A DNA stretch of 64,000 bases from a virus. The notes beneath the pieces were generated by a model, which had not been told where the DNA came from, did no database searches, and saw only the letters and a list, made by a program, of their open reading frames with translations. A program made the position numbers and the translations under genes. The stretch is taken from IMG/VR virus record IMGVR_UViG_3300046665_000589, positions 1 through 64,000 of that record; one strand, written 5' to 3'. Within the stretch, counting starts at the first letter, position 1; the number at the start of each line of letters is the position of its first letter. Below are positions 18,588 to 46,735 of this stretch, in pieces.

Positions 18588-20050
18588 ACCAGCACCTGCA
18601 AGGTGGTGCGCGCGGTCTTCGAGTTGAGCGCGCGCGAGATGACCATGCCGGTCTGGCCGTTGGCCAGGCCGAAGCGGGAGTTCTGCAGCTGCACCGCGTC
18701 ACCAAGCTGCAGGGTCAGGCAGGGCGCCAGCCCCTCGAACTCGTAGACGGTGCGCTGCACCTTCCACAGCGCCAGCTGGCGCGCCGCCTCGGCGGCCGCG
18801 TCGGTGCGGCGCAGCAGCAGCGTGTCCTGCTGGACCGGGTCGGCGCTCAGCTTGTAGGTCGCCTGCACCGCGCTATCGACCGCGGTCTCGGTCGCCCATT
18901 CGGCGGCCAGACGCGCCTTGTGCTCGACCGGCAAGGCGGTCTGCAAGTCGTCCTGCACCGTCCAGTTCTTGCAAAAGCCCAGCTTGACCGCGGCCTTGAC
19001 GTCGGGCCGGTTGACGATCTTGATCGACTTTTCGGCGATCATGGCCGGCGTGATCGCGGTCGGCGTGCCGGGCGGCGGCAGCGCGACCTGCAGCAGGCGC
19101 AGCTGACCGGTGGCCGACGGCACCAGCTGCGCGCCGAGCGAGCCGGCCAGCTGCTGGCAGGCCGCCAGCACGTTGGTGCGGTCGCCGATGTACAGGCCGA
19201 CCGGCTGCGGGTGGGCGGCGTCGAACGCGGCGAAGTTGGCGCTGTCGATCTCGGCCAAGGCGAACCGCTCGGGCACCTTGCCATAGCTGGTCGCAAGGCG
19301 CTGGACCAGCGGCGCGACCGTGTTGGCGTAGCCGCCCGTCGTGTCGCCCTGGAAGCTGACGGTGATGGTGCCCGCCACGCCTTGGTTCAGGCGGAAGCGC
19401 CCGTTGCCCAGGTCCGTGAAGGCGACCGGCAGGCCGTTGTCGCGCACCTCGAAGATCCACTCGGTCGCGCCGTCGTGCACCTGGTACTCGAGCTGGGCCG
19501 GGTCGACCAGCAGCGGCGTGACGTTGGCCACCTCGCCCAGCCCGACCGGCACGATCTCGTCCTTGTTGGTGGTGGTGCCGCCCAGCTTGTGCTCGGTCAC
19601 CGGCGCGTTCAGGCGCTGCAGATTGTCGCGCAGCTTGATGTTGAGCGTCTCGCGGCTCTTGCTGTCGAGGTTGGCCGCGCGCCCGCTGAAGATCATGCGG
19701 AAGTCGGCGCGCGGCCAGCGCACGTCGCCGATCCAGGCCTTGACCGGGGTGTTGGTCCAGACGTAGCCGAGCCAGGCGTCGCGCGCGCCGCCGAAGTTGT
19801 GGAACTCGATGTCGCCCACCGATATCTGCGGGTCGCCCGTCAGCGACAGCGCCTCGCTGAACGTGATGCCCGAGCTGCACACCCCGACGTACGGGGTGTG
19901 GGCGGGCGCGTCGGCCGCGCCGGTGGTGTAGCCGACGGTGGCCAGGTACAGCGTGGTGGGCACGCCACCAACCAGTGGCGTAACCTCGATCAGCGTGGTA
20001 CGCCGGGCGGTCGGATCGTTCAGCCAAGCGAGGAAGTCGGCATCGGTCAT
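18584..20050 (-). CDS. tail tip / hub protein
   Basis: Directly after tape measure; VPVGLGEVANVTP; C-terminal LQLGDAV...RFGL. Confidence 0.7.
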   Translation of the reverse strand: MTDADFLAWLNDPTARRTTLIEVTPLVGGVPTTLYLATVGYTTGAADAPAHTPYVGVCSSGITFSEALSLTGDPQISVGDIEFHNFGGARDAWLGYVWTNTPVKAWIGDVRWPRADFRMIFSGRAANLDSKSRETLNIKLRDNLQRLNAPVTEHKLGGTTTNKDEIVPVGLGEVANVTPLLVDPAQLEYQVHDGATEWIFEVRDNGLPVAFTDLGNGRFRLNQGVAGTITVSFQGDTTGGYANTVAPLVQRLATSYGKVPERFALAEIDSANFAAFDAAHPQPVGLYIGDRTNVLAACQQLAGSLGAQLVPSATGQLRLLQVALPPPGTPTAITPAMIAEKSIKIVNRPDVKAAVKLGFCKNWTVQDDLQTALPVEHKARLAAEWATETAVDSAVQATYKLSADPVQQDTLLLRRTDAAAEAARQLALWKVQRTVYEFEGLAPCLTLQLGDAVQLQNSRFGLANGQTGMVISRALNSKTARTTLQVLV

Positions 20051-23000
20051 TGCAGGGCCTCCGTGTTACGGGCGTTGTAGGCGGTGGCGGCGGCGCCTTC
20101 GGCCAGGCCCTCCGCCAGTGCTGCCGCCGTGCGTTCAGCCGCTGTCATGGTGGCGTCAATCTGGTCGGTGGCCTGCTGCTTCTGGTCGCCGCGCAGACCT
20201 TCGAGCAGCTCGATCATGCGGGCGACCTGGGCTTGGGTCGGGCCGTCGGCCACGGTGACGGTCTGCGAAGCATGCACGGCACCGTTAGCCGCGGTGTACA
20301 GTCCGCCGGACATGTGCGCGAGGTACTCTTCGCTGTGCATCAGGTTCTGGGCGATCTCCGACAAGGACTCACCTGCGCCCATCTGCTGTTGCCAGTAAGC
20401 CAGTCCGTCGGTATCGACGTGGCGGCCGAGCAGCGACTGGTACAAGGCGTCGATGCCTTGCCCGCCGTGCGCCGACTGGTACTCCTCGCTTCTCGAGATG
20501 GTCTGGGCGACGTCGCCGACCGAGGAGCCACCGCGCAGCACCTGCTGCCAGTACGCAAGGCCCCCGGCGTCCGCTTGGCGCCCGAGCATGCCTTGGTACA
20601 GCGCCTGGATTGCCGCCGTCTGCGAGCCCGCCGTAGCTGCGTCACCGTCGCCGCCGGACTTGGTGATGGCCGCGCCCAGCGCCACGATGGCGTCGTGCAC
20701 CGACAGCACCTCCTTCTTGACCTCGACCAGGCCGGACACCTGGGCGTTGAGTGCGTCCAGGCTGGCCTTGGCCACGTCGACCTGCTGCTCAGCCCAGGTG
20801 GCCGCGTCGGCGGTCGCGCCGATCACCATGTTGAAGTCGTTGGTGTAGCCGGCGCTAGAGGCGTAGACCGTGCGCGAAGCCTCCAGGAACGCGTTGACCA
20901 CGCTCTGGTAGTTGCTCTGCGCATCCTGGTCGCCGGCCTTGGCCGCCGCCAGAGTCTTGCTGAACTCGTCGCGGGCGGCCGCGTACTTCTGCATCGGCGT
21001 GAGCGGCGACTTGTCGCCCAGCTTGAGGTCGACCATCAGCTTCTTCCAGTCGGAAGACAGCTTGCCCATGCGCGTGCTCAGGTCCTCGATGCTCTTCTTC
21101 TCGGCCTCGTATGCGTTGTTCAGGTCGTCGCGCGCGTCCTTGACCGCCTTGGCCGCCTGCACCTGGTCGAACAGCGCGCGGTTGCTCACGTCCAGCTTGG
21201 CGCGCTCGAGCGCGGTCAGCTCGGCCTCGGACTTGGTCAGCTGGTTCAGCTGGTCCTGCAAGGCGTCGCGCTCGTCGGCGATTTCCTGCTCGGTCTTGGT
21301 CAGGTCCTTGGCCGCGGCGTGGGTCTTGGCGAACGCGTCCTGCAAGGCCATCAGCGTGACGTACATCTGCTGCTGCGCTGGGACGGTCAGGTCCAGCCCC
21401 AGCACCACTTGCTTGAAGGCGTCGCGCGTGGTGATCCCGCTCAGCCCAAGGTTCTTCAGCTGCTCGTCGACGTACCTGGCCACCGGCGCCAGCTGTTCGC
21501 CCTTGGTCAGGAAGTTCTGGGCGAAGCCGCTGGTCTGGCTGGCCAGCTTGTCGATGCCGCCGGCCAGGTCGATCAGGTGCTCACGCGCGGCGATGCTGGC
21601 AAGGCCCGTGGCGCCGAACGTCATGCCGATGCTCTGCAGGATGCCGTTCAGGTTGGCGTAGTCGGAGGCGACCCGGGTCAGGGTCTCGAGCGCGCCCTCG
21701 CCCACCTTCTGGAACTGGCTGATGGCCGGCACTGCGAAGCTCGCCATGTCGTCGCCGACCTTCGAGAACACCGACTCCAGCGCCTTCTGGATCTCGTCGC
21801 CCGACAGCCCCTTCAGGCTGATGTTGCCGATGTCGATCACGAAGGTGTTCAGGTGCTGGATGAATTCGTCGTTGCAGATGCCCAGCAGCTTGCTGGCCTC
21901 GGTCACGCCGTCGGCCAGGCTCTCGATCACCAAGGTGAACTGGTTGCGGGTAGCCGCGTCCAGCGCGGTGCGCACGGTGTCGTGCGAGTCGCCGCGGAAC
22001 CAGCCGCCATCGGTCTTGGTGTCCGTGTAGGACATCGGGTAGGCGCCGTTGGTGTTGATGTTCTGCAGGTACATCGCCGGCATGAACAGGCCACTGTCGG
22101 TGACACTCTGCGAGCCGCCGAACACCGAGCTCAAGGCCTTGCCGAGGAAGCCGTGGCCCAGCGCCGCGCCGACGATCGCGCCGAGGGCCAGCCCGAGCGG
22201 GCCGCCCATCGCGGTGAAGGTGGTCAGCATGGCGGTCGTGGCCGCGCCGGCGATCGCGCCGCCGACGGCACCCACCATGCCCACGCCCTTGCCGCTGAAC
22301 GAAGTGAAGTCCGGCGCGGTGGCGCCGGTCACACCGGTGCTGCGCACCAGCAACGAGGCGAAGCTGCCGATGTTGCTCTCGATGTTGCGCAGCGACGCCG
22401 CCATCGCCATCGTGTAGTCGAGGGTGATGTTCGAGTTGGACGCACTGATCTGGATCGCGCGCGCGATCGAGGTCGACTTGGTGTCGGGCGCGCCCAGCAC
22501 CGAGCCGGTGCCCTGCGCCTTCTGGCGGTCGACCGCCGTGGTATCGGCCCCGCCGCCGCCCGACAGCGACACGCCCAGGCCGGCCACCAGCGCCGTCATC
22601 GCCGCCATCCGACCGAACGCGGTGTACGGGTCGCCCTCGCCCTGGGTCAGTACGGCCGAGATCGCCTTGGGCACCAGCTCGGCCACGGTAGCGGCCAGCT
22701 CGGCCGCGTGGTAGGCCTGCGACACCGCCGTCAGGGTCGCGTAGCCCTTGCTCTGCTTGTCGAAGAAGCCGGCGGCGGCCTGCGCCATGTTGCCATAGGC
22801 GTGCACCTGGGCCGAGGCGGTGTCCGCCGCAGCCTTCTGCTTGGCGACCGGGTCGTCGCCGGCCTTGGCCAGCGTCTCGGCGATTTCCTGCTGGCGCGCG
22901 CCGTACTGCAGCGACACGGTCAGCAGCTCGCCCAGCGCCTTGCCACCCTGGCCGAACGCGTCGGACAGACCCTTGCCGATCGACTTGGAGACGTCGACCC

Positions 23001-26000
23001 AGACGTTGCGGGCGCGCTCGGCGGCCGCCTCGATCTGGGACAGATCGTTAGCCGCCTTCTTCTGGTCTTCCGGCCGGCCGTTCTTGACCAGGTTGGCCAG
23101 CTCGCGCTGTTTGGCCACCAGTTGCGGCAGGTTCGCCGCGTACAGCGCGGCCTGCTCCTTGGCGGCGGCGAACATCGCCGGCACGCCCACGTCCGGCCCG
23201 GATTGCGCCTTGAGCGCGGCCAGGCCGGCGCTCATGGTCGCGAACAGTGCGCCAAACTCCTTCTCGCTCTTGGCGATGGCGTCGGCGTTCACCGCCGCAG
23301 TGATCGCGTCGTCCGAGCGTCGCTTGGCCTCCTCGAACGCGGCCACCAGCTGCACGGCGCGGGTGAAGGTCTTGGCGTCGCCCTGCTCGGCCGAAGCGTT
23401 AAGCTGCGCGCGCGCGTCGGCCAGCCCCTTGTCGATCTGGGCGATTTCGACGGCGTGGGCAAGCTGGTAGGCCAGCACGGTGTCGCCTTCCTTGCGCGCC
23501 TGCTCGATCCGGAACTGGGTGGTCTGCTCGGCCGACTTCTTGAGGATCTCGTCGTAGTCACGTGCCAGCTTGGCGTCGGCTTCGGTGATCCCTGCGCGCG
23601 CGGCGGTCTCGTCCTTCTTGGCCTTGGCGATGTCATTGCGGCCGTACTCGCGGCCGGCGGCCAGCGCCTGCTTCTTCTGGGCGATGTCAATCGCCGCCTC
23701 CAGGCTGCCGACCTGGGCGTCACGCTCGTCCTTGGCGGCCTGCAGCGCGGAGATCGCACCGGTCTTGTAGGCGCTGGCGATGTCGCGTCCGGTGGTCTGA
23801 GCCTGCTTTTGCACCTTCAGCAGCTCGTCGTCGAGCATTGTCAAGGCTTCGCGATACTCGTCGTTAGCCGCTTTCTTGTCGACTTTCGGCGCGCGCGGCG
23901 ACAGCAAGGAGTTGCGTTCATCCTGCAGCTGGCGCAGGTCGACACGCAGGGCCTCGATGCGCGCCTTCTCGGCCTCGACGTCGGCCTTGATCAGGTTCGG
24001 TGCCAGCAGCTGGGCCTTCAGGTCGTTGGCACGCAGGTCAACCGCGCGCACCGCCGCGTTCTGCTGGTAGAACTCGCCCTTCGAATTCTTGTCCGTGCCT
24101 TCCTTGGCAAACTTCTCCATCTCCTCGCGCAGCTGCGCGGTGGCGTCGTGCACGCCCTTGACCGCCTTGGCCGGATCCAGCACCGTCTCGACCCGCTTCT
24201 GGGTCGCTTCCAGCTTGCGCAGGTTCTCGTCGGCCTCCAGGATCTTGTCGCGCAGGTCGGCGTAGCTCGATGCCGCGCTGACCACGCCGGTGCCGGCATC
24301 GAAGCTGGCCTCGAGCCCGTTGCGCAACTCGCTCGGGCTGACGCCACGCTTGCGTGCCTCCGCTTCCAGCGCCGTAACCTGCTTGCGTGCCGCGTCCAGC
24401 GTCTCCGGTGTAACCGTCTCCGGCGCCAGGTACTTGCCGTTCTTGGCGTCCCACAGCGCGTTGGCTTTCTCCAGCTGCTTGATCTCGCGGTCGAGCGCCT
24501 CCTCGATCACATGCAGCGAGTTGGCGATCTTCTGGTTGGCCTTGTCGGCCTCGTCAGTGTTGTCGCGGAACAGCAGCCAGGCGCCAGCCGCCACGCCGAC
24601 GGCAATGCCCAGGGCACCCAGGATCGGCAGGAGGGCGGCTTCCCACGCCGCGGCGGCGACCGTGGCCGCCTCGGTCGCGGCCACCTGGCTTGCGGCGGCG
24701 ACCGTCACCAGCTCGGACGAGGCGGCGCCCGCGATATTGGCCGTGGTGACCGCGCCCATCGCCGCCACCTCGGCGGCCTGGGCCGCGCCCAGCGCCCAGC
24801 TGGCCGCGGTCGCCGCCTTGACCAGTTCGATCACCGGCGCAAGCGCGCGCAGCCCGACGTAGCCGACGCCCAGCAGGGTGACGGTGCCCAGGTTGTCGAC
24901 CAGGCCACTGGTCAGGCGCGCCACGTTGGTGGCGAAGTTCTGCAGGCCGGTCGAAGCCGCGCCGCCGTCCTTGAAGGCGTCGGTCAGCGACAGCGCGATG
25001 TGCTGCACGTACGGCGAGGCTTCGGCGAACGCGCGCACGAAGCTGTTCTGCACCGTCACGCCCAGACGCTGGAAGCCGCCAGCGGTGTCGTCCTCGAGCT
25101 TCTTGACGACAGTCGACATGAAACCGGTGGCGCTGGCGGCCTCCTCGGTCTTCTTCTTGAAGTCGTCCAGGTTGGTCAGCGCCAGCTCGGCCGACTTGAC
25201 GCCGCGCACCGTGAAGATGCTGCCCAGGATGTCGACGCGGGCGGCATCGTTGAAGCCAGACAGCTTGCTCTTGGCCTCTTCCAGCAGCTGGGTCAGCGGC
25301 TTGAGCTGGCCGCTCGCGGTCTGGGTCTCCAGCCCCAGCTCCTTGAGCGCGCGCTTGCCCTTCTCGGTCGGCTCGTACAGGCCGGTCAGCATGTTGGTCA
25401 GGCTGGTACCGGCGGCACCGCCGGTGACGTTGATCTTGGCCAGCAGGCCCAGCATGCCTGCGGTTTCCTCGATCGAGACGTGGAACAGCGAGGCGACGGT
25501 CGAGGCCTGCTTCATCGACTCGGTCATCGCCAGCACGCTGGTGTTCGAATTGGCTGCGGTCTTGGCGAAGATGTCCGCCACGCGCCCGGCCTCGGCGTAC
25601 CCAAGGCCGAAGGCCGAGGCGGCGCCGGTGGCGGCCAGCGCCGCCTGCCCGACCGTCATCTCGCCGACCGTGGCCAGGTCCAGGATCGCCGGCAGCACCT
25701 GCAGCGACTGGGTCGCGTTCAGGCCGTTCTGCGCCAGCATGCGCATCGCGTTGGCGCCCTCGGCCAGCGAGTGCAGCGAGCCTTCCGACACGTGCAGGAA
25801 CTGATCGAGGTTGACGCCGCTGCTGGTCAGGGCCAGCACGTTGGTCAGCTGGTGCTCGACCTCGCTGCCGACCGAGGCCACCTGCTTGAGCGAACCGGCA
25901 ATGGCCGCGCCGGCGGCCAGCGGCACGAGGCTGCCGTAGGTCAGCCACAGCCCGCCGAGCGAACCGGCCAGGCCGCGCGCCAGGCTGTGCGCCTCGGCCA

Positions 26001-27033
26001 TCGCGTGGTTGTGGTCCGTGGTCGCGGCCGTCGAGCCGTGCACGGCCGGGGTCAGTGCCGCGTGTGCGGCGCGTAGGGCGTCGACGTCGGACGCCACCGC
26101 GACGCTGCCGTAGCGCTCGACCGCGCCGGCACGCGACGCGCCCGGCTGCTGCAGGTAGGTCTGGGCCTGCACAGCCTGGCGGATCTGCGCGGCCGGGCCG
26201 GCGGTCATGAAATTGGTGTTCAGGACGCGCTGGCGCTCGGCCGCGGCTTCGGCGTCGGCCAGCTTGCGCTGCTCGATCTGGTACAGCGCGTACTGCTGGT
26301 CACGCGCAAGTTGTAGCTGGCGTGCCTGCTTGGCCTCCTGCTCGGCCAGGGTGCGGTCCCAGAAGCTGACGTAGTCCTGGAACTCGCGCTGGCGCAGCGC
26401 GTGCATCTCGACGTCGCGCTTCTGCTCGATCGCGACCTGCTCGGCGATGGCCCGCTCCCACCACGAGACGTACTCCGTGTTGGCGGCCTGGCGCATGCGA
26501 TTGAGCTCGACATCGCGCGACTGCTCGATCGAGATCATGTGATCCCACCAGGCGGTGTAGTCGGCGGCTGCTTTGGCGCGCAGGGCGTGCAGTTCGGTGT
26601 CGCGGCGCTGCTCGAGCGCGACACGCTGGGCTGCGAGCTTCTCCTGCTCCTGGGCGAACGTGACGTCGACCTGCAGCTGGCGCGTGTTCATCGCCTCCTG
26701 CGCGGCCAGGAAGGTGCGGTCGGCGTTGAGCTGGCGATCGCGCGCCTTCTCGTTGACGATGGCGATCTGCTCTTCGGTCTTCTCGCGCGCGGCGACCACC
26801 TCGTTGCCGCCCTTTTGCACCAGCGCGGCGACCTCGGCAAAGCCGGTGGTCATCGACGCCTGCATCAGCTGGACCTGCTGCTCGAGCTTGGTCAGACCGG
26901 ACACCGTGCCGAGCGCTTGCAGCGACTCGTACAGGCGGTCGATGGCCGTAACGATCCGATCGACGCCCTCGGCGCCGCTGGATGTTACGGGAATGTCGAT
27001 CGGGCCGCTGCCGGTCTCGCCGCCTTCACTCAT
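20047..27033 (-). CDS. tape measure protein (TP901-like core)
   Basis: ~2330 aa Ala-rich helical protein, GGAAGTSLTNML core; RBS GGAGG before ATG 27033 (alternative start 27066). Confidence 0.93.
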   Translation of the reverse strand: MSEGGETGSGPIDIPVTSSGAEGVDRIVTAIDRLYESLQALGTVSGLTKLEQQVQLMQASMTTGFAEVAALVQKGGNEVVAAREKTEEQIAIVNEKARDRQLNADRTFLAAQEAMNTRQLQVDVTFAQEQEKLAAQRVALEQRRDTELHALRAKAAADYTAWWDHMISIEQSRDVELNRMRQAANTEYVSWWERAIAEQVAIEQKRDVEMHALRQREFQDYVSFWDRTLAEQEAKQARQLQLARDQQYALYQIEQRKLADAEAAAERQRVLNTNFMTAGPAAQIRQAVQAQTYLQQPGASRAGAVERYGSVAVASDVDALRAAHAALTPAVHGSTAATTDHNHAMAEAHSLARGLAGSLGGLWLTYGSLVPLAAGAAIAGSLKQVASVGSEVEHQLTNVLALTSSGVNLDQFLHVSEGSLHSLAEGANAMRMLAQNGLNATQSLQVLPAILDLATVGEMTVGQAALAATGAASAFGLGYAEAGRVADIFAKTAANSNTSVLAMTESMKQASTVASLFHVSIEETAGMLGLLAKINVTGGAAGTSLTNMLTGLYEPTEKGKRALKELGLETQTASGQLKPLTQLLEEAKSKLSGFNDAARVDILGSIFTVRGVKSAELALTNLDDFKKKTEEAASATGFMSTVVKKLEDDTAGGFQRLGVTVQNSFVRAFAEASPYVQHIALSLTDAFKDGGAASTGLQNFATNVARLTSGLVDNLGTVTLLGVGYVGLRALAPVIELVKAATAASWALGAAQAAEVAAMGAVTTANIAGAASSELVTVAAASQVAATEAATVAAAAWEAALLPILGALGIAVGVAAGAWLLFRDNTDEADKANQKIANSLHVIEEALDREIKQLEKANALWDAKNGKYLAPETVTPETLDAARKQVTALEAEARKRGVSPSELRNGLEASFDAGTGVVSAASSYADLRDKILEADENLRKLEATQKRVETVLDPAKAVKGVHDATAQLREEMEKFAKEGTDKNSKGEFYQQNAAVRAVDLRANDLKAQLLAPNLIKADVEAEKARIEALRVDLRQLQDERNSLLSPRAPKVDKKAANDEYREALTMLDDELLKVQKQAQTTGRDIASAYKTGAISALQAAKDERDAQVGSLEAAIDIAQKKQALAAGREYGRNDIAKAKKDETAARAGITEADAKLARDYDEILKKSAEQTTQFRIEQARKEGDTVLAYQLAHAVEIAQIDKGLADARAQLNASAEQGDAKTFTRAVQLVAAFEEAKRRSDDAITAAVNADAIAKSEKEFGALFATMSAGLAALKAQSGPDVGVPAMFAAAKEQAALYAANLPQLVAKQRELANLVKNGRPEDQKKAANDLSQIEAAAERARNVWVDVSKSIGKGLSDAFGQGGKALGELLTVSLQYGARQQEIAETLAKAGDDPVAKQKAAADTASAQVHAYGNMAQAAAGFFDKQSKGYATLTAVSQAYHAAELAATVAELVPKAISAVLTQGEGDPYTAFGRMAAMTALVAGLGVSLSGGGGADTTAVDRQKAQGTGSVLGAPDTKSTSIARAIQISASNSNITLDYTMAMAASLRNIESNIGSFASLLVRSTGVTGATAPDFTSFSGKGVGMVGAVGGAIAGAATTAMLTTFTAMGGPLGLALGAIVGAALGHGFLGKALSSVFGGSQSVTDSGLFMPAMYLQNINTNGAYPMSYTDTKTDGGWFRGDSHDTVRTALDAATRNQFTLVIESLADGVTEASKLLGICNDEFIQHLNTFVIDIGNISLKGLSGDEIQKALESVFSKVGDDMASFAVPAISQFQKVGEGALETLTRVASDYANLNGILQSIGMTFGATGLASIAAREHLIDLAGGIDKLASQTSGFAQNFLTKGEQLAPVARYVDEQLKNLGLSGITTRDAFKQVVLGLDLTVPAQQQMYVTLMALQDAFAKTHAAAKDLTKTEQEIADERDALQDQLNQLTKSEAELTALERAKLDVSNRALFDQVQAAKAVKDARDDLNNAYEAEKKSIEDLSTRMGKLSSDWKKLMVDLKLGDKSPLTPMQKYAAARDEFSKTLAAAKAGDQDAQSNYQSVVNAFLEASRTVYASSAGYTNDFNMVIGATADAATWAEQQVDVAKASLDALNAQVSGLVEVKKEVLSVHDAIVALGAAITKSGGDGDAATAGSQTAAIQALYQGMLGRQADAGGLAYWQQVLRGGSSVGDVAQTISRSEEYQSAHGGQGIDALYQSLLGRHVDTDGLAYWQQQMGAGESLSEIAQNLMHSEEYLAHMSGGLYTAANGAVHASQTVTVADGPTQAQVARMIELLEGLRGDQKQQATDQIDATMTAAERTAAALAEGLAEGAAATAYNARNTEALQ

Positions 27034-27099
27034 AGAAAAGCCTCCATTGGAGTTGCCATTATCCAATGGAGGCTAGTTGTAGGCAAGCAATTACTATGC

Positions 27100-37768: not shown

Positions 37769-39532
37769 TTAGGAGAGAACTCGGCCGATGCGCTGCTGCA
37801 TGCGCGCGGCCAGCGCCTGGGTGGGGGACTGCTTATCGACGACTTTCAGCGCGACTGCCATCGGGAAGGTGCCAAAGCTCATGTTATGCGAGGCTACCGG
37901 CGCCAGCTCGCAGGCCACGTGCAGGTAGCCCAAGGCGTGCATGTAGTGGTCCTGGCCCTCGTTGGACTTGACCCAGGTCCAGACCAGGTCCATCAGCGAA
38001 TTCATGATCTGCTTGCGTTTCATGTCCAGGCAGTGCTCGACGAACAGGTCGTCCTCGGCGGTGCCGTCGGCCTGCCACAGGATCATGCCGGCCTTGATCT
38101 TGAACATCACCTCGTCGAAGTTGACGTCGCGGTGGATCTTGGCCTGGTTGATCGGCAGCTTGCCCTCGGCCGGCTCGGCGCCGACCATCACCAGTTCGTA
38201 GGTGGCCAGCTTCTTGTTGCTGTGGTAGACGCCGCCGTACAGGTTCTTGTCGGTCTTTTGCAGCTGGTGCACCAGGTAGGTCTCGGGCTGGCTGTCGATG
38301 ACCGTCATTAAGACCCGAAACTGCTTCTTCAGCTCGTTCTTGCGGGTCGGCAGCTTGGCCAGCAGCACGCGCTCCTTGTGCACCACCAACAAGCGCCCAA
38401 GCTCGTCCTTGCGGCCGACCGCCACCGTGCACATCTGGCCGACGTCGATGCCCATGTTGTGCAGGCTGTTGGAGGCCAGCACGCCGTCGGTGAATTTGCA
38501 GGCGGTCAGGTCGCTGCGAGTGAGCTGGCTCTCGGACTCGTTGGCGGTCTCGCCCAGCGCCTGGTTGACGAACTCGGCCCAGGTCTTGTACTTGGTGATT
38601 TCCTGCACCAGCGAGGGCACGGTGACCACGTTGGGCACGTCGAACGGGGTGACGTAGTAGCCGATCGCCTCGAAGTTGTCGTTCGGGTTCTCGCAGATCC
38701 AGGCGCGGTGCTCCGGCGCCAGGCTGGGCTCCTCGTCGCAGTGCGGGCAGTGCAGGCGCGCGTGCTGCCAGTCGATGGTCGGCAGGTTGTACTTGGTGAT
38801 GTCGCGCAGGCGCCCGCTGTAGCCGGGGATCTTGACGTCGGTGTGAAAGCTCGGCACGAAGGTGTGGCTGCAATGGTGGCAGATCACCGCGCGGCGGTAA
38901 CGCATCGCGCTCTTCATGTCCAGCGCGATGCCGTCGTCGTCGATGGTCGGGGTGCCGAACTTGCGGGTCAGCTTGTAGCGCGAGTGCTTGATGCGCGACT
39001 GGTACTGGCCCAAGGCGTCCGGATCTGAGCGGTCGACCTCGTCGTGGATCAGCATGTCGGCCGGCACCGAGATGGCCGAGGTCGTGCCCGAGCAGCCGCG
39101 GGTGTACAAGAGGCTGGTGCCGATGCCCTTGATCTCGCTGTTGTCGAGGTCGCGGTCGACCACCTCGCGCAAGTCGGGCGACTCGTCGATAATCGGGGTC
39201 AGGCGGGTCTTGGAGAAGTTGGCCGAGTCGGCCGCGAACGGCATCGTCAGGATCACCGAGAAGTACGGCATCACGCGGCAGATCGCCAGCGCATAGCGCG
39301 CCATCGCCTCGGACATGCCGATCTGGGCGCACTTCTGGACGTACACCACGCGGCTGGTGTCGGACAGAATGTCCTTCTGGAATTCGTGGTCGACGAAGGA
39401 GAAGCGGTTGCCCTTGAGGTAGGTCTTGTCCTCGAGATAGCGCACGACGTCGCCCAGGTCGTAGCTGTTGAACAGCGCCGTTTCCAGGCGCGTCAGGTGG
39501 GCCCGGATTTCGGGATCGTCGACCAGGTTCAT
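37769..39532 (-). CDS. terL: terminase large subunit (lambda gpA-like)
   Basis: KCAQIGMSE Walker A variant, LIHDEVD Walker B, GTPT, CHHC/CPHC Zn motif, MGIDVG nuclease, DHY. Confidence 0.9.
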   Translation of the reverse strand: MNLVDDPEIRAHLTRLETALFNSYDLGDVVRYLEDKTYLKGNRFSFVDHEFQKDILSDTSRVVYVQKCAQIGMSEAMARYALAICRVMPYFSVILTMPFAADSANFSKTRLTPIIDESPDLREVVDRDLDNSEIKGIGTSLLYTRGCSGTTSAISVPADMLIHDEVDRSDPDALGQYQSRIKHSRYKLTRKFGTPTIDDDGIALDMKSAMRYRRAVICHHCSHTFVPSFHTDVKIPGYSGRLRDITKYNLPTIDWQHARLHCPHCDEEPSLAPEHRAWICENPNDNFEAIGYYVTPFDVPNVVTVPSLVQEITKYKTWAEFVNQALGETANESESQLTRSDLTACKFTDGVLASNSLHNMGIDVGQMCTVAVGRKDELGRLLVVHKERVLLAKLPTRKNELKKQFRVLMTVIDSQPETYLVHQLQKTDKNLYGGVYHSNKKLATYELVMVGAEPAEGKLPINQAKIHRDVNFDEVMFKIKAGMILWQADGTAEDDLFVEHCLDMKRKQIMNSLMDLVWTWVKSNEGQDHYMHALGYLHVACELAPVASHNMSFGTFPMAVALKVVDKQSPTQALAARMQQRIGRVLS

Positions 39533-41837: not shown

Positions 41838-42560
41838 TCCGCTTGCCCCGCATGGGGCATTTACCAAGGGCCGCGCGCCCTTGGTAAGTGTCTCAAGTCC
41901 AAGCATAGCGCTTGGCCGCGTCGGGTTCCCGCTTCGCTGGCGTCGCTTCGCCACTGTCGCGTGTCTCCTTCGTGTCGCTCTTAGCTGGCAGCAGTCGCGC
42001 CAGCAGACAATTTGATCCCGCCAACCTGACGCCAGTCGCGCCAGTGTCGCGCCCTTGCTTCGCGCCGTTTCCCTCGGTAGCGTCGCTTGGAGCGCTTCAT
42101 GGGCAACGCTGGCAGGGCGCGGGAATTGAAGCTTAAAAGCAAGAGTAGATATCGGTACAGTCAGCTAGATGAACGATGATATCGGATTGCGGAGCATAGA
42201 GCATTGACGCGGGCAGCAACTAGGCCAGCGCACAGCGCGCCGACAGTGATACGGTCGGCTACAGGGTGGGCCAGCAAGGTCATACCGCAGCGCGTAGATG
42301 CCTGATCCTTCGGGAGCTAAACCGGCCACACCGGGCACGCAAATAACGCTAGTCACTGGACACATTCGATCCTTGCCAAGGCCAGCCACATCGGCTGGCA
42401 AATCCTAGACGGCATGCAAGCCGGACTAGGCCGCGATGAGCGGGACCGCTTTGGCAAGCGGCCATACGCCTTGCCCTCCCCGGCGTCGAAATAGGGGAGG
42501 GGGAATACCCTGCGCATTGTGGACTGTTCAGTGCGCAGTCATTCCAGACAGGAGGACCAC
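41838..42560 (+). ncRNA. candidate large structured non-coding RNA
   Basis: ~720 nt with no credible ORF, many hairpins; no known family recognised. Confidence 0.45.
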
Positions 42561-42869
42561 ATGGACCTGCAATCGGCCTTGCGCGGCATCCTGCCGCAGA
42601 TCACGCCAGCAACACCGGCAGCACCGGCCAAACCGAAGGCGAAGGCGAAGGCGAAGGCGAAGGCGAAACTGCCGCGGCGCCTGGCCGTCGGTAGTTTCGA
42701 CTGCGGCCGCAAGGCGTTCGACACTACCGGCACGGTCGGCCGCTTCGACCCGAGCCGGCCGCCGCCGGTGCACCCGCCCGGCTATTCCGAGCACCGGTGC
42801 GACCCGCACCGCATCCACCTGAGCACCACCCGCGCGCTGCGCCTGTGGTCGAAAACCGAAGTCAAATAG
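42561..42869 (+). CDS. hypothetical protein with (KA)n tract
   Basis: RBS AGGAGG; tandem GAAGGC x5. Confidence 0.75.
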   Translation: MDLQSALRGILPQITPATPAAPAKPKAKAKAKAKAKLPRRLAVGSFDCGRKAFDTTGTVGRFDPSRPPPVHPPGYSEHRCDPHRIHLSTTRALRLWSKTEVK

Positions 42870-42878
42870 GAGAACATC

Positions 42879-43073
42879 ATGAAACGCATCACCGTTTTCG
42901 GCTTTGCCGTGATCCACGCGGCGCTGCTGCTGTTGCTGGACCAGATCGCCAGCGAGAATTTCCTGGGCTACGGCCTGCTGCTGCGCGGGCTGGTCATGGT
43001 CATGCTCGCGGCCGATGTCGTGGTCGCCTACGAGGCGCTGCGCGGGCTGTGGCGGGCCGAGGTGCGGGCATGA
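42879..43073 (+). CDS. small membrane protein
   Basis: RBS AGGAG, two TM-like segments. Confidence 0.75.
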   Translation: MKRITVFGFAVIHAALLLLLDQIASENFLGYGLLLRGLVMVMLAADVVVAYEALRGLWRAEVRA

Positions 43074-43144
43074 ACCGCGGCCTGGCGGTGGGTTTGCTGA
43101 TGCTGGCCTGCATGGCGGTACCGGCGCTGTTGCGGTTGCTGTAG
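43070..43144 (+). CDS. 24-aa hydrophobic peptide
   Basis: ATGA overlap, RBS GAGG; MNRGLAVGLLMLACMAVPALLRLL. Confidence 0.45.
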   Translation: MNRGLAVGLLMLACMAVPALLRLL

Positions 43145-43173
43145 AGTAAGGACAGGGGCGGTGTCGGTTTCGA

Positions 43174-43202
43174 TTGAAACACGCCCCTGTTCGATGTAAG
43201 TT
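43174..43202 (+). promoter_or_regulatory. sigma70-type promoter within an inverted repeat
   Basis: TTGAAA-17 bp-TAAGTT; IR ACAGGGGCG/CGCCCCTGT 43152-43190. Confidence 0.5.
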
Positions 43203-43231
43203 ATTTAAACCAAAATAAAAGGGGAAATTGT

Positions 43232-43429
43232 ATGTACAAAGCACGCAAAATGCTGCCCAAGGAATTGCAGGCAGCAGACAACAAAGGTCGCCAGCGCGTT
43301 TTCTGCGTTGAGCACGACAGCGGCAAGGTTGTCAGGGCTAACCTGACTTGGCCGGAGGCCTGCACGGAGGCGCGCGCCCGCACGCGCAACGAGGTCGAGC
43401 GCAGCTTCGCCGACCTCTGCCCGGCCTAG
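43232..43429 (+). CDS. hypothetical protein
   Basis: RBS AAGGGG. Confidence 0.65.
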   Translation: MYKARKMLPKELQAADNKGRQRVFCVEHDSGKVVRANLTWPEACTEARARTRNEVERSFADLCPA

Positions 43430-43431
43430 CA

Positions 43432-43486
43432 GGACGAAACCCGGCCGCGCGCCGGGTCTGTGCGTGTGACGCACACTGACGAGTCC
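43432..43486 (+). ncRNA. hammerhead ribozyme, type II
   Basis: GGAC-GAA-ACCCGGC/GCCGGGU-C-UGUGCGU/ACGCACA-CUGACGA-GUCC: complete catalytic core and three stems. Confidence 0.93.
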
Positions 43487-43505
43487 ACCCACCACGGAGC
43501 CCACC

Positions 43506-43805
43506 ATGACCACCCAAATCACCACCTTCAACACCGGCCGCCAGTACAGCGACAAGGGTCAGCGCATCGCCTGCGCGCTGCTGCCCGACGGGCGCGTGAT
43601 GTTCGCCGACGTCGACCGCAACCTCGACGGCATCACGCAGGGCGCCATTGCGCCCGGCTTGCAGGCCGGCGCCGACCTGCGCGAGTTCGTGATGAACTCG
43701 TACGACTATGGCGCGTACAACAGCGGCTGCCACGAGTGCACCAGCGGACAGGCCGCCCGCGACCAGATGATGGCCGAACTCAAGGCCGCAGCACTGAAGC
43801 TGTAA
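43506..43805 (+). CDS. hypothetical protein
   Basis: RBS GGAG; FNTGRQYS..GQRI. Confidence 0.8.
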   Translation: MTTQITTFNTGRQYSDKGQRIACALLPDGRVMFADVDRNLDGITQGAIAPGLQAGADLREFVMNSYDYGAYNSGCHECTSGQAARDQMMAELKAAALKL

Positions 43806-43830
43806 CCAGACAGCAACACCCGAGCAACAA

Positions 43831-43853
43831 GGCCGCCGCGAGCGGCCATTTTT
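43831..43853 (+). terminator. putative intrinsic terminator
   Basis: GGCCGC-CGCGA-GCGGCC-ATTTTT. Confidence 0.55.
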
Positions 43854-43861
43854 ACGCCACC

Positions 43862-44976
43862 ATGAAGACACTCATCCAAAAAATACAGGGAGGCATCATG
43901 CATCACCTGCTGTCGGAGCGCCTGCCGCGCCCCATGCCCACCGGCGAGAACCACCTGACCCCGCTCGACCAATTCACCATCACCGCAGGCACCACGCCGT
44001 TCGCACTGTGCAAGCAGCACGGCCACTACGACATCGTCATCAACCTTGAGCTCGAGGTGGGCTATTTCCGCCACCAGAAGGGCCTGTACGAGGGCCGCTT
44101 CTGGCTGGCCGGGCGCACCTTCCTGGCAGCCGAGCACCTGCTGCCGCGCGACGTGCAGAGCGGCCTGGCCAAGCTCGGCTACGAGGTGGCGTGATGAGCG
44201 CCGCCCGACTTTTCCGCGGCGAGGCCCGCGAAGACATCCTCTTCCACGATGTCGCCGTCTGCCACTATTTCAGGTTCCGCGGCCACGTGTATGAGAAAGT
44301 CAGCACCGACAAGGGTCGCCCTTGGGGTTGCGGCGAGCGCGAAATTCGCACGTTTGCAGCCGACGACATCGTGCAGGTGGCGAAATGAACCCCGACTATG
44401 CCAACCTGTTTCTGCTGACCGACGCGCTCAAGCGTCTGTTCGCAGCCGAGTTCAAGGGTGAAGGCAGCCAGCGCCGCGCGATCGCCGAGTACGACTCGAC
44501 CCGCGCGCGCGTCCAGAAGGTCAACCCGGAAGCCTTCACCGCGTTCTGCCAAGCCTTTATGGTGCGGCCGGACGCCACCGGCGCTGACATCCTCAAGGGA
44601 GGCTCGTGATGTTGGCCTTCGTTAGTCCTGGCAGGTGGCGCATCCCTGCGTGGAAGGGCGCCTTCGCCGTGCGCGTGCACCGCCGCCCAGCCGCATGGGA
44701 ATTGCAGGACGCGCAAGGTCGCCTCACCTTCGGTGACGGCTTCGAGTCGCTCGCGCACCTGCGCGCCTGGCTGAAGGAGGCAGCATGAAACGCGCCGCCA
44801 TCGCCTTCAAGCACATCGGCATTGGCCAGTGCTTCACCTGCGAGCTCCAGGTCTGGACCAAGCTCAACGAGCAGGAGGCCAGCTCGGACACCTGCCGCGC
44901 CACCTTCCCGCCCGACCACCCGGTTACTCAGGGCACCACCGTGCCGTCACCACGGAAGCCCCAGACCTCGCGGTAG
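43862..44976 (+). other. five coupled hypothetical CDS (43862-44194, 44191-44388, 44385-44609, 44606-44788, 44785-44976)
   Basis: Stop/start overlaps with RBSs. Confidence 0.7.
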
Positions 44977-46405: not shown

Positions 46406-46735
46406 CAGTCAGCGATAGTCAATTCGAGTCAATGACAGTCAATACCCATCAGCCCGTCATGGGTATTGACTGTCACTGACATTGACTCGAATTGACAGTC
46501 AGTGACTGTCACTGACTCGGATTGACAGTCACTGACTACGATTGACAGCGATTGACAGCGATTGACAGCGATTGACAGAGTCATTGACAGCAATTGACAG
46601 CGATTGACAGCGATTGACAGAGTCATTGACTGTCACTGACTACAATTGACAGCGATTGACAGCGATTGACAGCGTCATTGACTGTCAGTGACTGTCAATC
46701 GTAGTCAATGACATTGACAGTCATTGACAGTCAGT
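46385..46735. repeat. 10-bp-period TTGACAG / TGACWGTCA array
   Basis: Tandem ATTGACAGCG units plus palindromic variants and an internal inverted repeat. Confidence 0.95.

Follow-up and report, generated by a model that had tools for sequence, protein, structure and literature searches.

A predicted type II hammerhead ribozyme of compact, pseudoknot-less form between two small genes of an uncultured phage

The window, i.e. the whole stretch of 64,000 nucleotides that was analysed, is part of the 93.5-kb genome of an uncultured phage. The large terminase gene is on the minus strand (37769-39532), and across a divergent control region a plus strand block of small genes extends from about 41.1 kb. 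The label 'early' for the genes of this block is plausible on the basis of their position opposite the terminase and structural module. The structural module also contains an open frame of 2339 aa (20047-27066, minus strand). Further along the window, the segment 46386-46733 consists of dense TGACAGTCA and ATTGACAG repeats with many overlapping inverted repeats, directly upstream of an open reading frame that starts at 46708.

Two adjacent genes of the plus strand block, neither with an assigned function, enclose the candidate ribozyme. The upstream gene (43232-43429, plus strand) is present in the list of open reading frames, encodes 65 aa and has a homologue of 48% identity in two related phage contigs. 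Its TAG stop codon at 43427-43429 ends one base before A(-1), the base that precedes the ribozyme helices. The downstream gene (43506-43805, plus strand) encodes 99 aa, and ten homologues (at least nine) align with the product from the first residue. Its ATG at 43506 is 19 nt past the ribozyme 3' end and follows a C/A-rich leader (43488-43505, plus strand), recognized in the sequence and in the fold, with the SD sequence GGAG at 43496-43499. The sequence-only reading had set the motif between a stop codon and the next RBS, and the positions of stop, SD and ATG match that description. No match to either product was found in Pfam or PHROG. The 99-aa protein has a confidently predicted beta-sheet plus two-helix fold (pLDDT 85.6); this predicted fold has no match in the PDB and resembles only uncharacterised phage proteins in BFVD (A0A7S5UX14, E 2e-4). 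The strongly conserved core of the protein consists of FNTGRxYSDKGQRIA and GRVMFADVDRNIDGIT. Judging from sequence comparison, both neighbours of the ribozyme are real genes, because homologues of both exist in viral and metagenome contigs. Just upstream of 43232 there is a possible sigma-70 promoter (TTGAAA, 17 nt, TAAGTT), picked out by eye, that fails the promoter-scan criteria.

Past the 99-aa gene, the hairpin GGCCGC-cgcga-GCGGCC followed by AUUUUU (43831-43853, plus strand) resembles an intrinsic terminator. It is found by the terminator scan and has a folding energy of -12.6 kcal/mol (z -2.2); the terminator that had been placed at 43831 is thus present, both as a hairpin and as a T run. 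Long stems elsewhere in the block had been pointed out as well. Two of these, 41853-41895 (-33.4 kcal/mol, z -5.3) and 43150-43192 (-26.4 kcal/mol, z -5.0), greatly exceed shuffled sequences in stability, but the stem at 42502 shows no significant excess (z -1.6). Do these stems form part of an RNA processing programme, as had been suggested? The hairpin at 41853 has a positional counterpart: in a related phage, a long hairpin of different sequence comes right after the homologue of the 231-aa gene (L009:1739-1778) and is followed by a similar gap, and the hairpin position after this gene seems kept in the relative. However, nothing links the stems to processing over termination or stabilisation, and this part of the proposal is not established. 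Hairpin 41853-41895 opens a region of about 720 nt (41838-42560) between the 231-aa gene and the next one that is without a convincing open reading frame. Hairpin 43150-43192 has no clear T run; it lies 5' of the 65-aa gene, after the small, membrane-like open reading frames that end at 43144, and might serve as a terminator, in processing or in stabilisation.

The sequence 43432-43486 on the plus strand has all the elements of a type II hammerhead, in the strand order helix II strand, GAAA, hairpin III, C17, hairpin I, CUGACGA and helix II strand. The first strand of helix II, GGAC (43432-43435, with C11.1 at 43435), is supported by the sequence, the local MFE fold and the covariance model alignment. 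Just 5' of it is A(-1) at 43431, a base conserved in the compact class described below and with a putative role in a tertiary contact. The core bases G12 A13 A14 (GAA, 43436-43438) follow and are placed by both the Rfam and the covariance model alignments. Helix III is the hairpin ACCCGGC/loop CGCGC/GCCGGGU (43439-43457), present in the sequence, the fold and the covariance model; here 43439-43445 pairs with 43451-43457 and includes A15.1-U16.1 (A43439-U43457) and C15.2-G16.2. C17 is at 43458. A cut between 43458 and 43459 had been predicted, and the alignment to the hammerhead consensus puts the scissile bond at this same position. Helix I is a 17-nt hairpin (43459-43475, UGUGCG-U-GUG-A-CGCACA), seen in the sequence and the fold, with G6, U7 and C12 as bases of interest; UGUGCGU (43459-43465) pairs with ACGCACA (43469-43475) around the loop GUG. 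The remaining core bases, C3 U4 G5 A6 C7 G8 A9 (CUGACGA), occupy 43476-43482, again in both the Rfam and the covariance model alignments. The 3' side of helix II with the base after it occupies 43483-43487, according to the sequence and the fold: GUCC (43483-43486) pairs with GGAC (43432-43435), with G43483-C43435 (G10.1-C11.1) at the base of the helix, and A(+1) comes next.

Helices I, II and III have 7, 4 and 7 pairs, respectively, or 18 stem pairs in total. The topology is that of type II, with helices I and III capped by loops and helix II open to the flanking RNA. The bases that define a hammerhead core are all there (C3-A9, G12 A13 A14, A15.1-U16.1 and an H17 that is not G). The three-way junction is both the MFE and the centroid fold of 43425-43495.

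Could the motif have arisen by chance in GC-rich DNA and lack any function as RNA? GC-rich DNA forms many hairpins, and the local fold of the motif region is no more stable than that of shuffled sequences (z -1.1). However, a descriptor consisting of the core plus minimum helix lengths of 4 (I), 3 (II) and 4 pairs (III), with hairpins of up to 40 nt, finds 43432-43486 as its sole match in the genome (93,507 bases). When the genome was shuffled 400 times with its dinucleotide content preserved and scanned on both strands, two loose matches appeared, with 12 and 14 stem pairs, vs. the 18 observed; this amounts to 0.005 loose matches per genome, none with 18 stem pairs. A covariance model, R1, was built from an alignment (A3) of 57 copies in 36 phage loci, from which this phage and its relatives were left out. 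R1 aligns with the motif over its full length at 64.6 bits (E about 6e-17 under a rough calibration), with no second match in the 64-kb window and none in the remaining genome. The motif is also on the coding strand, fits the intergenic space exactly and has the spacing typical of its class. A match without RNA function is extremely improbable, and a chance origin of the motif is excluded. The claim of the sequence-only reading that a complete type II hammerhead sits between two genes is thereby upheld, with respect both to its elements and to significance.

The standard family model responds less strongly. The Rfam Hammerhead_II model (RF02276) aligns with the motif from end to end at 29.6 bits (E 3e-4 in a local search, 2.1e-5 per genome), which does not reach the gathering score of 37 bits; at that score an Rfam scan gave no match in the window or the rest of the genome. 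A blastn search with 42400-44400 gave no match in the GenBank phage collection. The type II hammerheads on which RF02276 is based (PMC3088659; clan CL00010) have the same core and the same permutation as the window copy. They also have the same setting on the coding strand between small phage genes, and the same message-cutting role has been proposed for them. The consensus, however, has a short helix II and a long loop I that forms a pseudoknot of at least 4 pairs with the 3' tail (PMC3088659). The window copy differs in having a loop I of 3-5 nt, no pseudoknot and a 4-bp GGAC/GUCC helix II. Its longest match between loop I and the tail is 3 nt, vs. at least 4 pairs in the RF02276/Perreault consensus. 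It is also single in its genome and not clustered, unlike the published prophage copies. The score is below the cut-off because the copy belongs to a compact subclass without the pseudoknot, as the following comparison indicates.

The viral contig collection IMG/VR was searched with a pattern in which the core and a GAC/GUC helix II were the sole fixed elements. At least 120 viral loci were found, many with several matches. Helices I and III, which the pattern leaves free, are also present in 153 of the 161 raw matches among those listed. With the descriptor, 193 hammerheads are recognized in 114 of the at least 120 loci listed. Most of the listed copies have one compact form, in which helix II is the 4-bp GGAC/GUCC, hairpin I has 17-18 nt and helix III has 6-7 pairs. 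Compact copies are often present in two to seven per contig or locus, e.g. L018:7258-11604, L025:621-2633 and L033:5507-6947, and the phage of the window has one. The compact subclass is very common in uncultured phages.

Base counts were made on the non-redundant compact copies among the matches listed, for the positions that the search pattern leaves free. A(-1) is A in 132 of 136 copies, a conservation not found in the long-loop class with the pseudoknot. The base 3' of GUCC, A(+1), is A in 91 of 136, and H17 is C in 133 of 136. N7 is C in 44 of 136 copies, as it is in the window copy. Position 7 of hairpin I is U in 135 of 137 copies, and among the hairpins I of 17 nt, G6 is found in 70 and C12 in 69 of 89. 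The window copy carries every one of the class-specific bases: A43431, A(+1), G43464 (G6), U43465 (U7), C43470 (C12) and C17. It has U in the middle of loop I, where A is commonest in the class (62/89), and a helix III of 7 pairs with a 5-nt loop, where 6 pairs with a 4-nt loop are commonest. Compensatory changes are abundant in helices I and III of alignment A3; in 13 of 16 pairs both partners have changed. The 100% pairing in A3 is there by construction, as the copies were selected by the descriptor, but the variety of pair types is not.

How does the subclass relate to the hammerheads with the pseudoknot? In copies with a loop I of at least 7 nt, a match of at least 4 pairs between loop I and the tail is present in 72%, vs. 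22% with swapped tails; in these copies helix II has 3 bp and is not preceded by a conserved A. In compact copies, the match between loop I and the tail is not above the control (2.28 vs. 2.33 nt). The compact copies in six multi-copy loci score about 30-34 bits with RF02276, at most 33.6, all below 37. The low Rfam score and the absent pseudoknot are therefore properties of the subclass and not defects of the window copy. The compact IMG/VR copies and the window copy share architecture, class bases and the spacing to stop codon and SD.

What might the conserved A and U do? The sTRSV type III hammerhead has the same 4-bp GUCC/GGAC helix II as the window copy, and its loop I U and the A that ends its helix II cap are thought to make a conserved reverse-Hoogsteen contact. 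The topologies differ, as sTRSV has a GUGA-capped helix II and an open helix III; in the window copy, A(+1) and A(-1) flank the position at which the cap is open. The conserved A(-1) and loop I U of the compact class appear to fit the reverse-Hoogsteen loop-loop contact of type I and type III hammerheads, although here, unlike in sTRSV, it is base conservation that points to the contact. Such a contact has been described for both types (PMC6155905), and the conserved A and U also fit tertiary-contact classes given in the Figure S5 legend of the prophage study (PMC3088659).

Where did the window copy come from? Four phage contigs were found in a search for copies that share its helix III; these differ from it in helix I and in the flanks, so that none is an evident donor. 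A scan of genome contigs found no relative. The locus comparison covered contigs other than those of the closest protein homologues (66-67% identity). Two contigs, L008 and L009, the closest related ones among those compared, have homologues of both flanking genes at 48-59% identity, and in the gap between them is a GC-rich hairpin followed by TTTT. In both contigs (L008:3190-3260 and L009:3190-3260), the hairpin GGGCCGCCGCGCGCGGCCC-TTTT is found and not a hammerhead, and a TGC-TATAAG word is situated just upstream. When the gap in the window is compared with the terminator-bearing gap of a relative, only the SD and the start region align. For more distant homologues of the downstream gene, the gene before them is either tightly adjacent or separated by an AT-rich spacer. 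No hammerhead was detected with Rfam or R1 beside the homologous genes in eight related loci, nor a type II hammerhead with RF02276 in four related phage records, two of them complete. Given its absence from these relatives, the window hammerhead is a lineage-specific gain, for which selection on the window copy cannot be shown. Phage hammerheads are sporadic in their distribution, and such a gain agrees with this.

The same absence can be read in another way. The window copy might be recent or decaying, might fold poorly or cut too slowly, and its two GC-rich hairpins might act as stabilisers or as a weak terminator. The hammerhead is missing from all the relatives found, the same slot of a relative (59% protein identity) contains a GC-rich hairpin plus T run, and the copy itself lacks the pseudoknot and is under the Rfam cut-off. 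However, these last two traits are shared by the whole compact class, which reaches about 30-34 bits on RF02276, and no T run follows either hairpin. Decay should show as core changes. It is very unlikely that the copy is a decaying one, because no core or class-specific base has changed.

The placement of the window copy between its neighbours can also be compared with the class. An SD-led start and an open frame are present 3' of the ribozyme in 122 of 136 compact copies, at a median distance of 23.5 nt (IQR 19-29). Upstream, 127 of 132 copies have the stop codon of an open frame no more than 120 nt away. The gap from the stop to A(-1) has a median of 0 nt, and in 60 of the 127 the stop shares one or two bases with the ribozyme. 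With a stop gap of 1 nt and a start at 19 nt, and with its position on the coding strand, the window copy is typical of its class. The ribozyme fills the whole intercistronic space, as is usual for these elements.

The fold of the RNA before and after the predicted cut was also considered. In the upstream coding sequence, 43378-43390 (GCACGCGCA) and CCCGGCC at 43420-43426, a direct repeat of a helix III strand, can pair with the strands of helices I and III. For naked RNAs of 200-570 nt, this alternative fold is predicted to be better than the best hammerhead-containing fold by 1.4-3.2 kcal/mol. Once the RNA is divided at the predicted bond, the picture is different. The fold of 43400-43458 retains the helix III hairpin. 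In the centroid fold of 43459-43510 the SD is unpaired, and the leader 43459-43505 keeps only the helix I hairpin. The upstream pairing is a folding caveat, and at the same time it suggests why an insulating cut might be of use, in that there would be something to insulate against. Ribosomes on the upstream gene, together with local co-transcriptional folding, would favour the hammerhead over the competing fold.

Is the main job of an active ribozyme here a regulatory one? The cut might be gated by ribosomes or by the competing fold, or it might shorten the life of one message. In the ribosome version, a ribosome that terminates at the stop 1 nt upstream would have a footprint extending over helix II and GAAA, and in the gated versions generally translation of the upstream gene would determine how much free downstream message there is. 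In most of the 127 class members the stop touches the ribozyme 5' edge or extends into it, but tight packing of phage genes could by itself explain this proximity. The alternative fold with 43378-43390 and the CCCGGCC at 43420 does compete with helices I and III, but it is a thermodynamic prediction for naked RNA. A GUCAG word in the 3' tail that could mask the core is present in 22 of 132 compact copies, but it is absent from the tail of the window copy. There is also no experimental hint of gating. Regulation as the main function is rather unlikely.

The sequence 43431-43487 (plus strand) probably specifies an active type II hammerhead that belongs to the compact, pseudoknot-less phage subclass; its transcript would be a message extending through the 65-aa gene into the 99-aa gene. 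How might it work? On emerging, the RNA would fold into the three-way junction. A(-1) and the U that opens loop I would probably form a contact between helices I and II, which may allow fast cutting at cellular Mg2+ levels, and the RNA would then cut itself in vivo after C43458. The 4-bp helix II would melt after the cut and the halves would separate. The helix III hairpin, with a 2',3'-cyclic phosphate, would form the 3' end of the upstream RNA, 29 nt past the stop codon. The downstream RNA would start with a 5'-OH and the helix I hairpin, and continue through the open leader with its SD and the 99-aa gene to the terminator at 43831. This product would be a single-gene message of about 395 nt, with 43506-43805 as its only gene. 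The two cistrons would become separate hairpin-capped RNAs, the second RBS would be freed from pairing with upstream coding sequence, and the two genes might then differ in stability and in translation, as with a synthetic ribozyme insulator.

Two known systems offer comparisons. RiboJ, a synthetic insulator derived from sTRSV, cuts off upstream RNA and standardises the 5' end before the SD. The early genes of phage T7 have RNase III sites between cistrons, where the long transcript is cut into hairpin-ended single-gene messages; RNase III is a host enzyme that acts on long double-stranded stems, and the ends it produces are a 5'-phosphate and a 3'-OH. In the phage of the window, by contrast, the RNA itself is predicted to do the cutting, leaving a 5'-OH and a 2',3'-cyclic phosphate.

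Published work on phage hammerheads bears on this proposal. Prophage type II hammerheads that flank single genes cleave in vitro and in Escherichia coli, and in 2011 it was proposed that clustered prophage hammerheads split transcripts into single-gene mRNAs (PMC3088659). The processing into single-gene messages has since been restated as a hypothesis (PMC6765202). In Desulfovibrio vulgaris, three type II copies beside phage genes cleave in vivo (PMC8782182). Reviews still call the biological role of bacterial and phage hammerheads open (PMC6155905, PMC6765202). The compact hammerheads of phages probably cut long messages into single-gene pieces. A monocistronic mRNA for 43506-43805, bounded by the cut and the terminator, had been put forward from the sequence; it would have a length of about 395 nt, and it agrees with the interpretation given for the clustered prophage copies (PMC3088659).

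A bolder scheme, which seems improbable, is that the compact hammerheads, as a subclass missed by Rfam, are ribosome-gated, and also that ribozyme and intrinsic terminator are interchangeable fillers of one slot in this lineage. In the gated form, a terminating ribosome would hold helix II and GAAA open until its release. If gating were true, translation of the upstream gene would time the cut, and with it the moment at which the downstream message is set free, insulated and capped by a hairpin.

Since 2011, type II hammerheads have been known to occur between phage genes, and 43432-43486 is a typical, single further copy. For this phage, a two-gene message would yield two hairpin-capped RNAs, the second of about 395 nt and coding for the conserved 99-aa protein. 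Standard Rfam annotation misses the whole compact subclass, as its members score under the gathering score. The class-level results, namely the sub-cut-off Rfam scores, the kept A and U and the wedging between stop codon and RBS, are perhaps more useful than the single copy.
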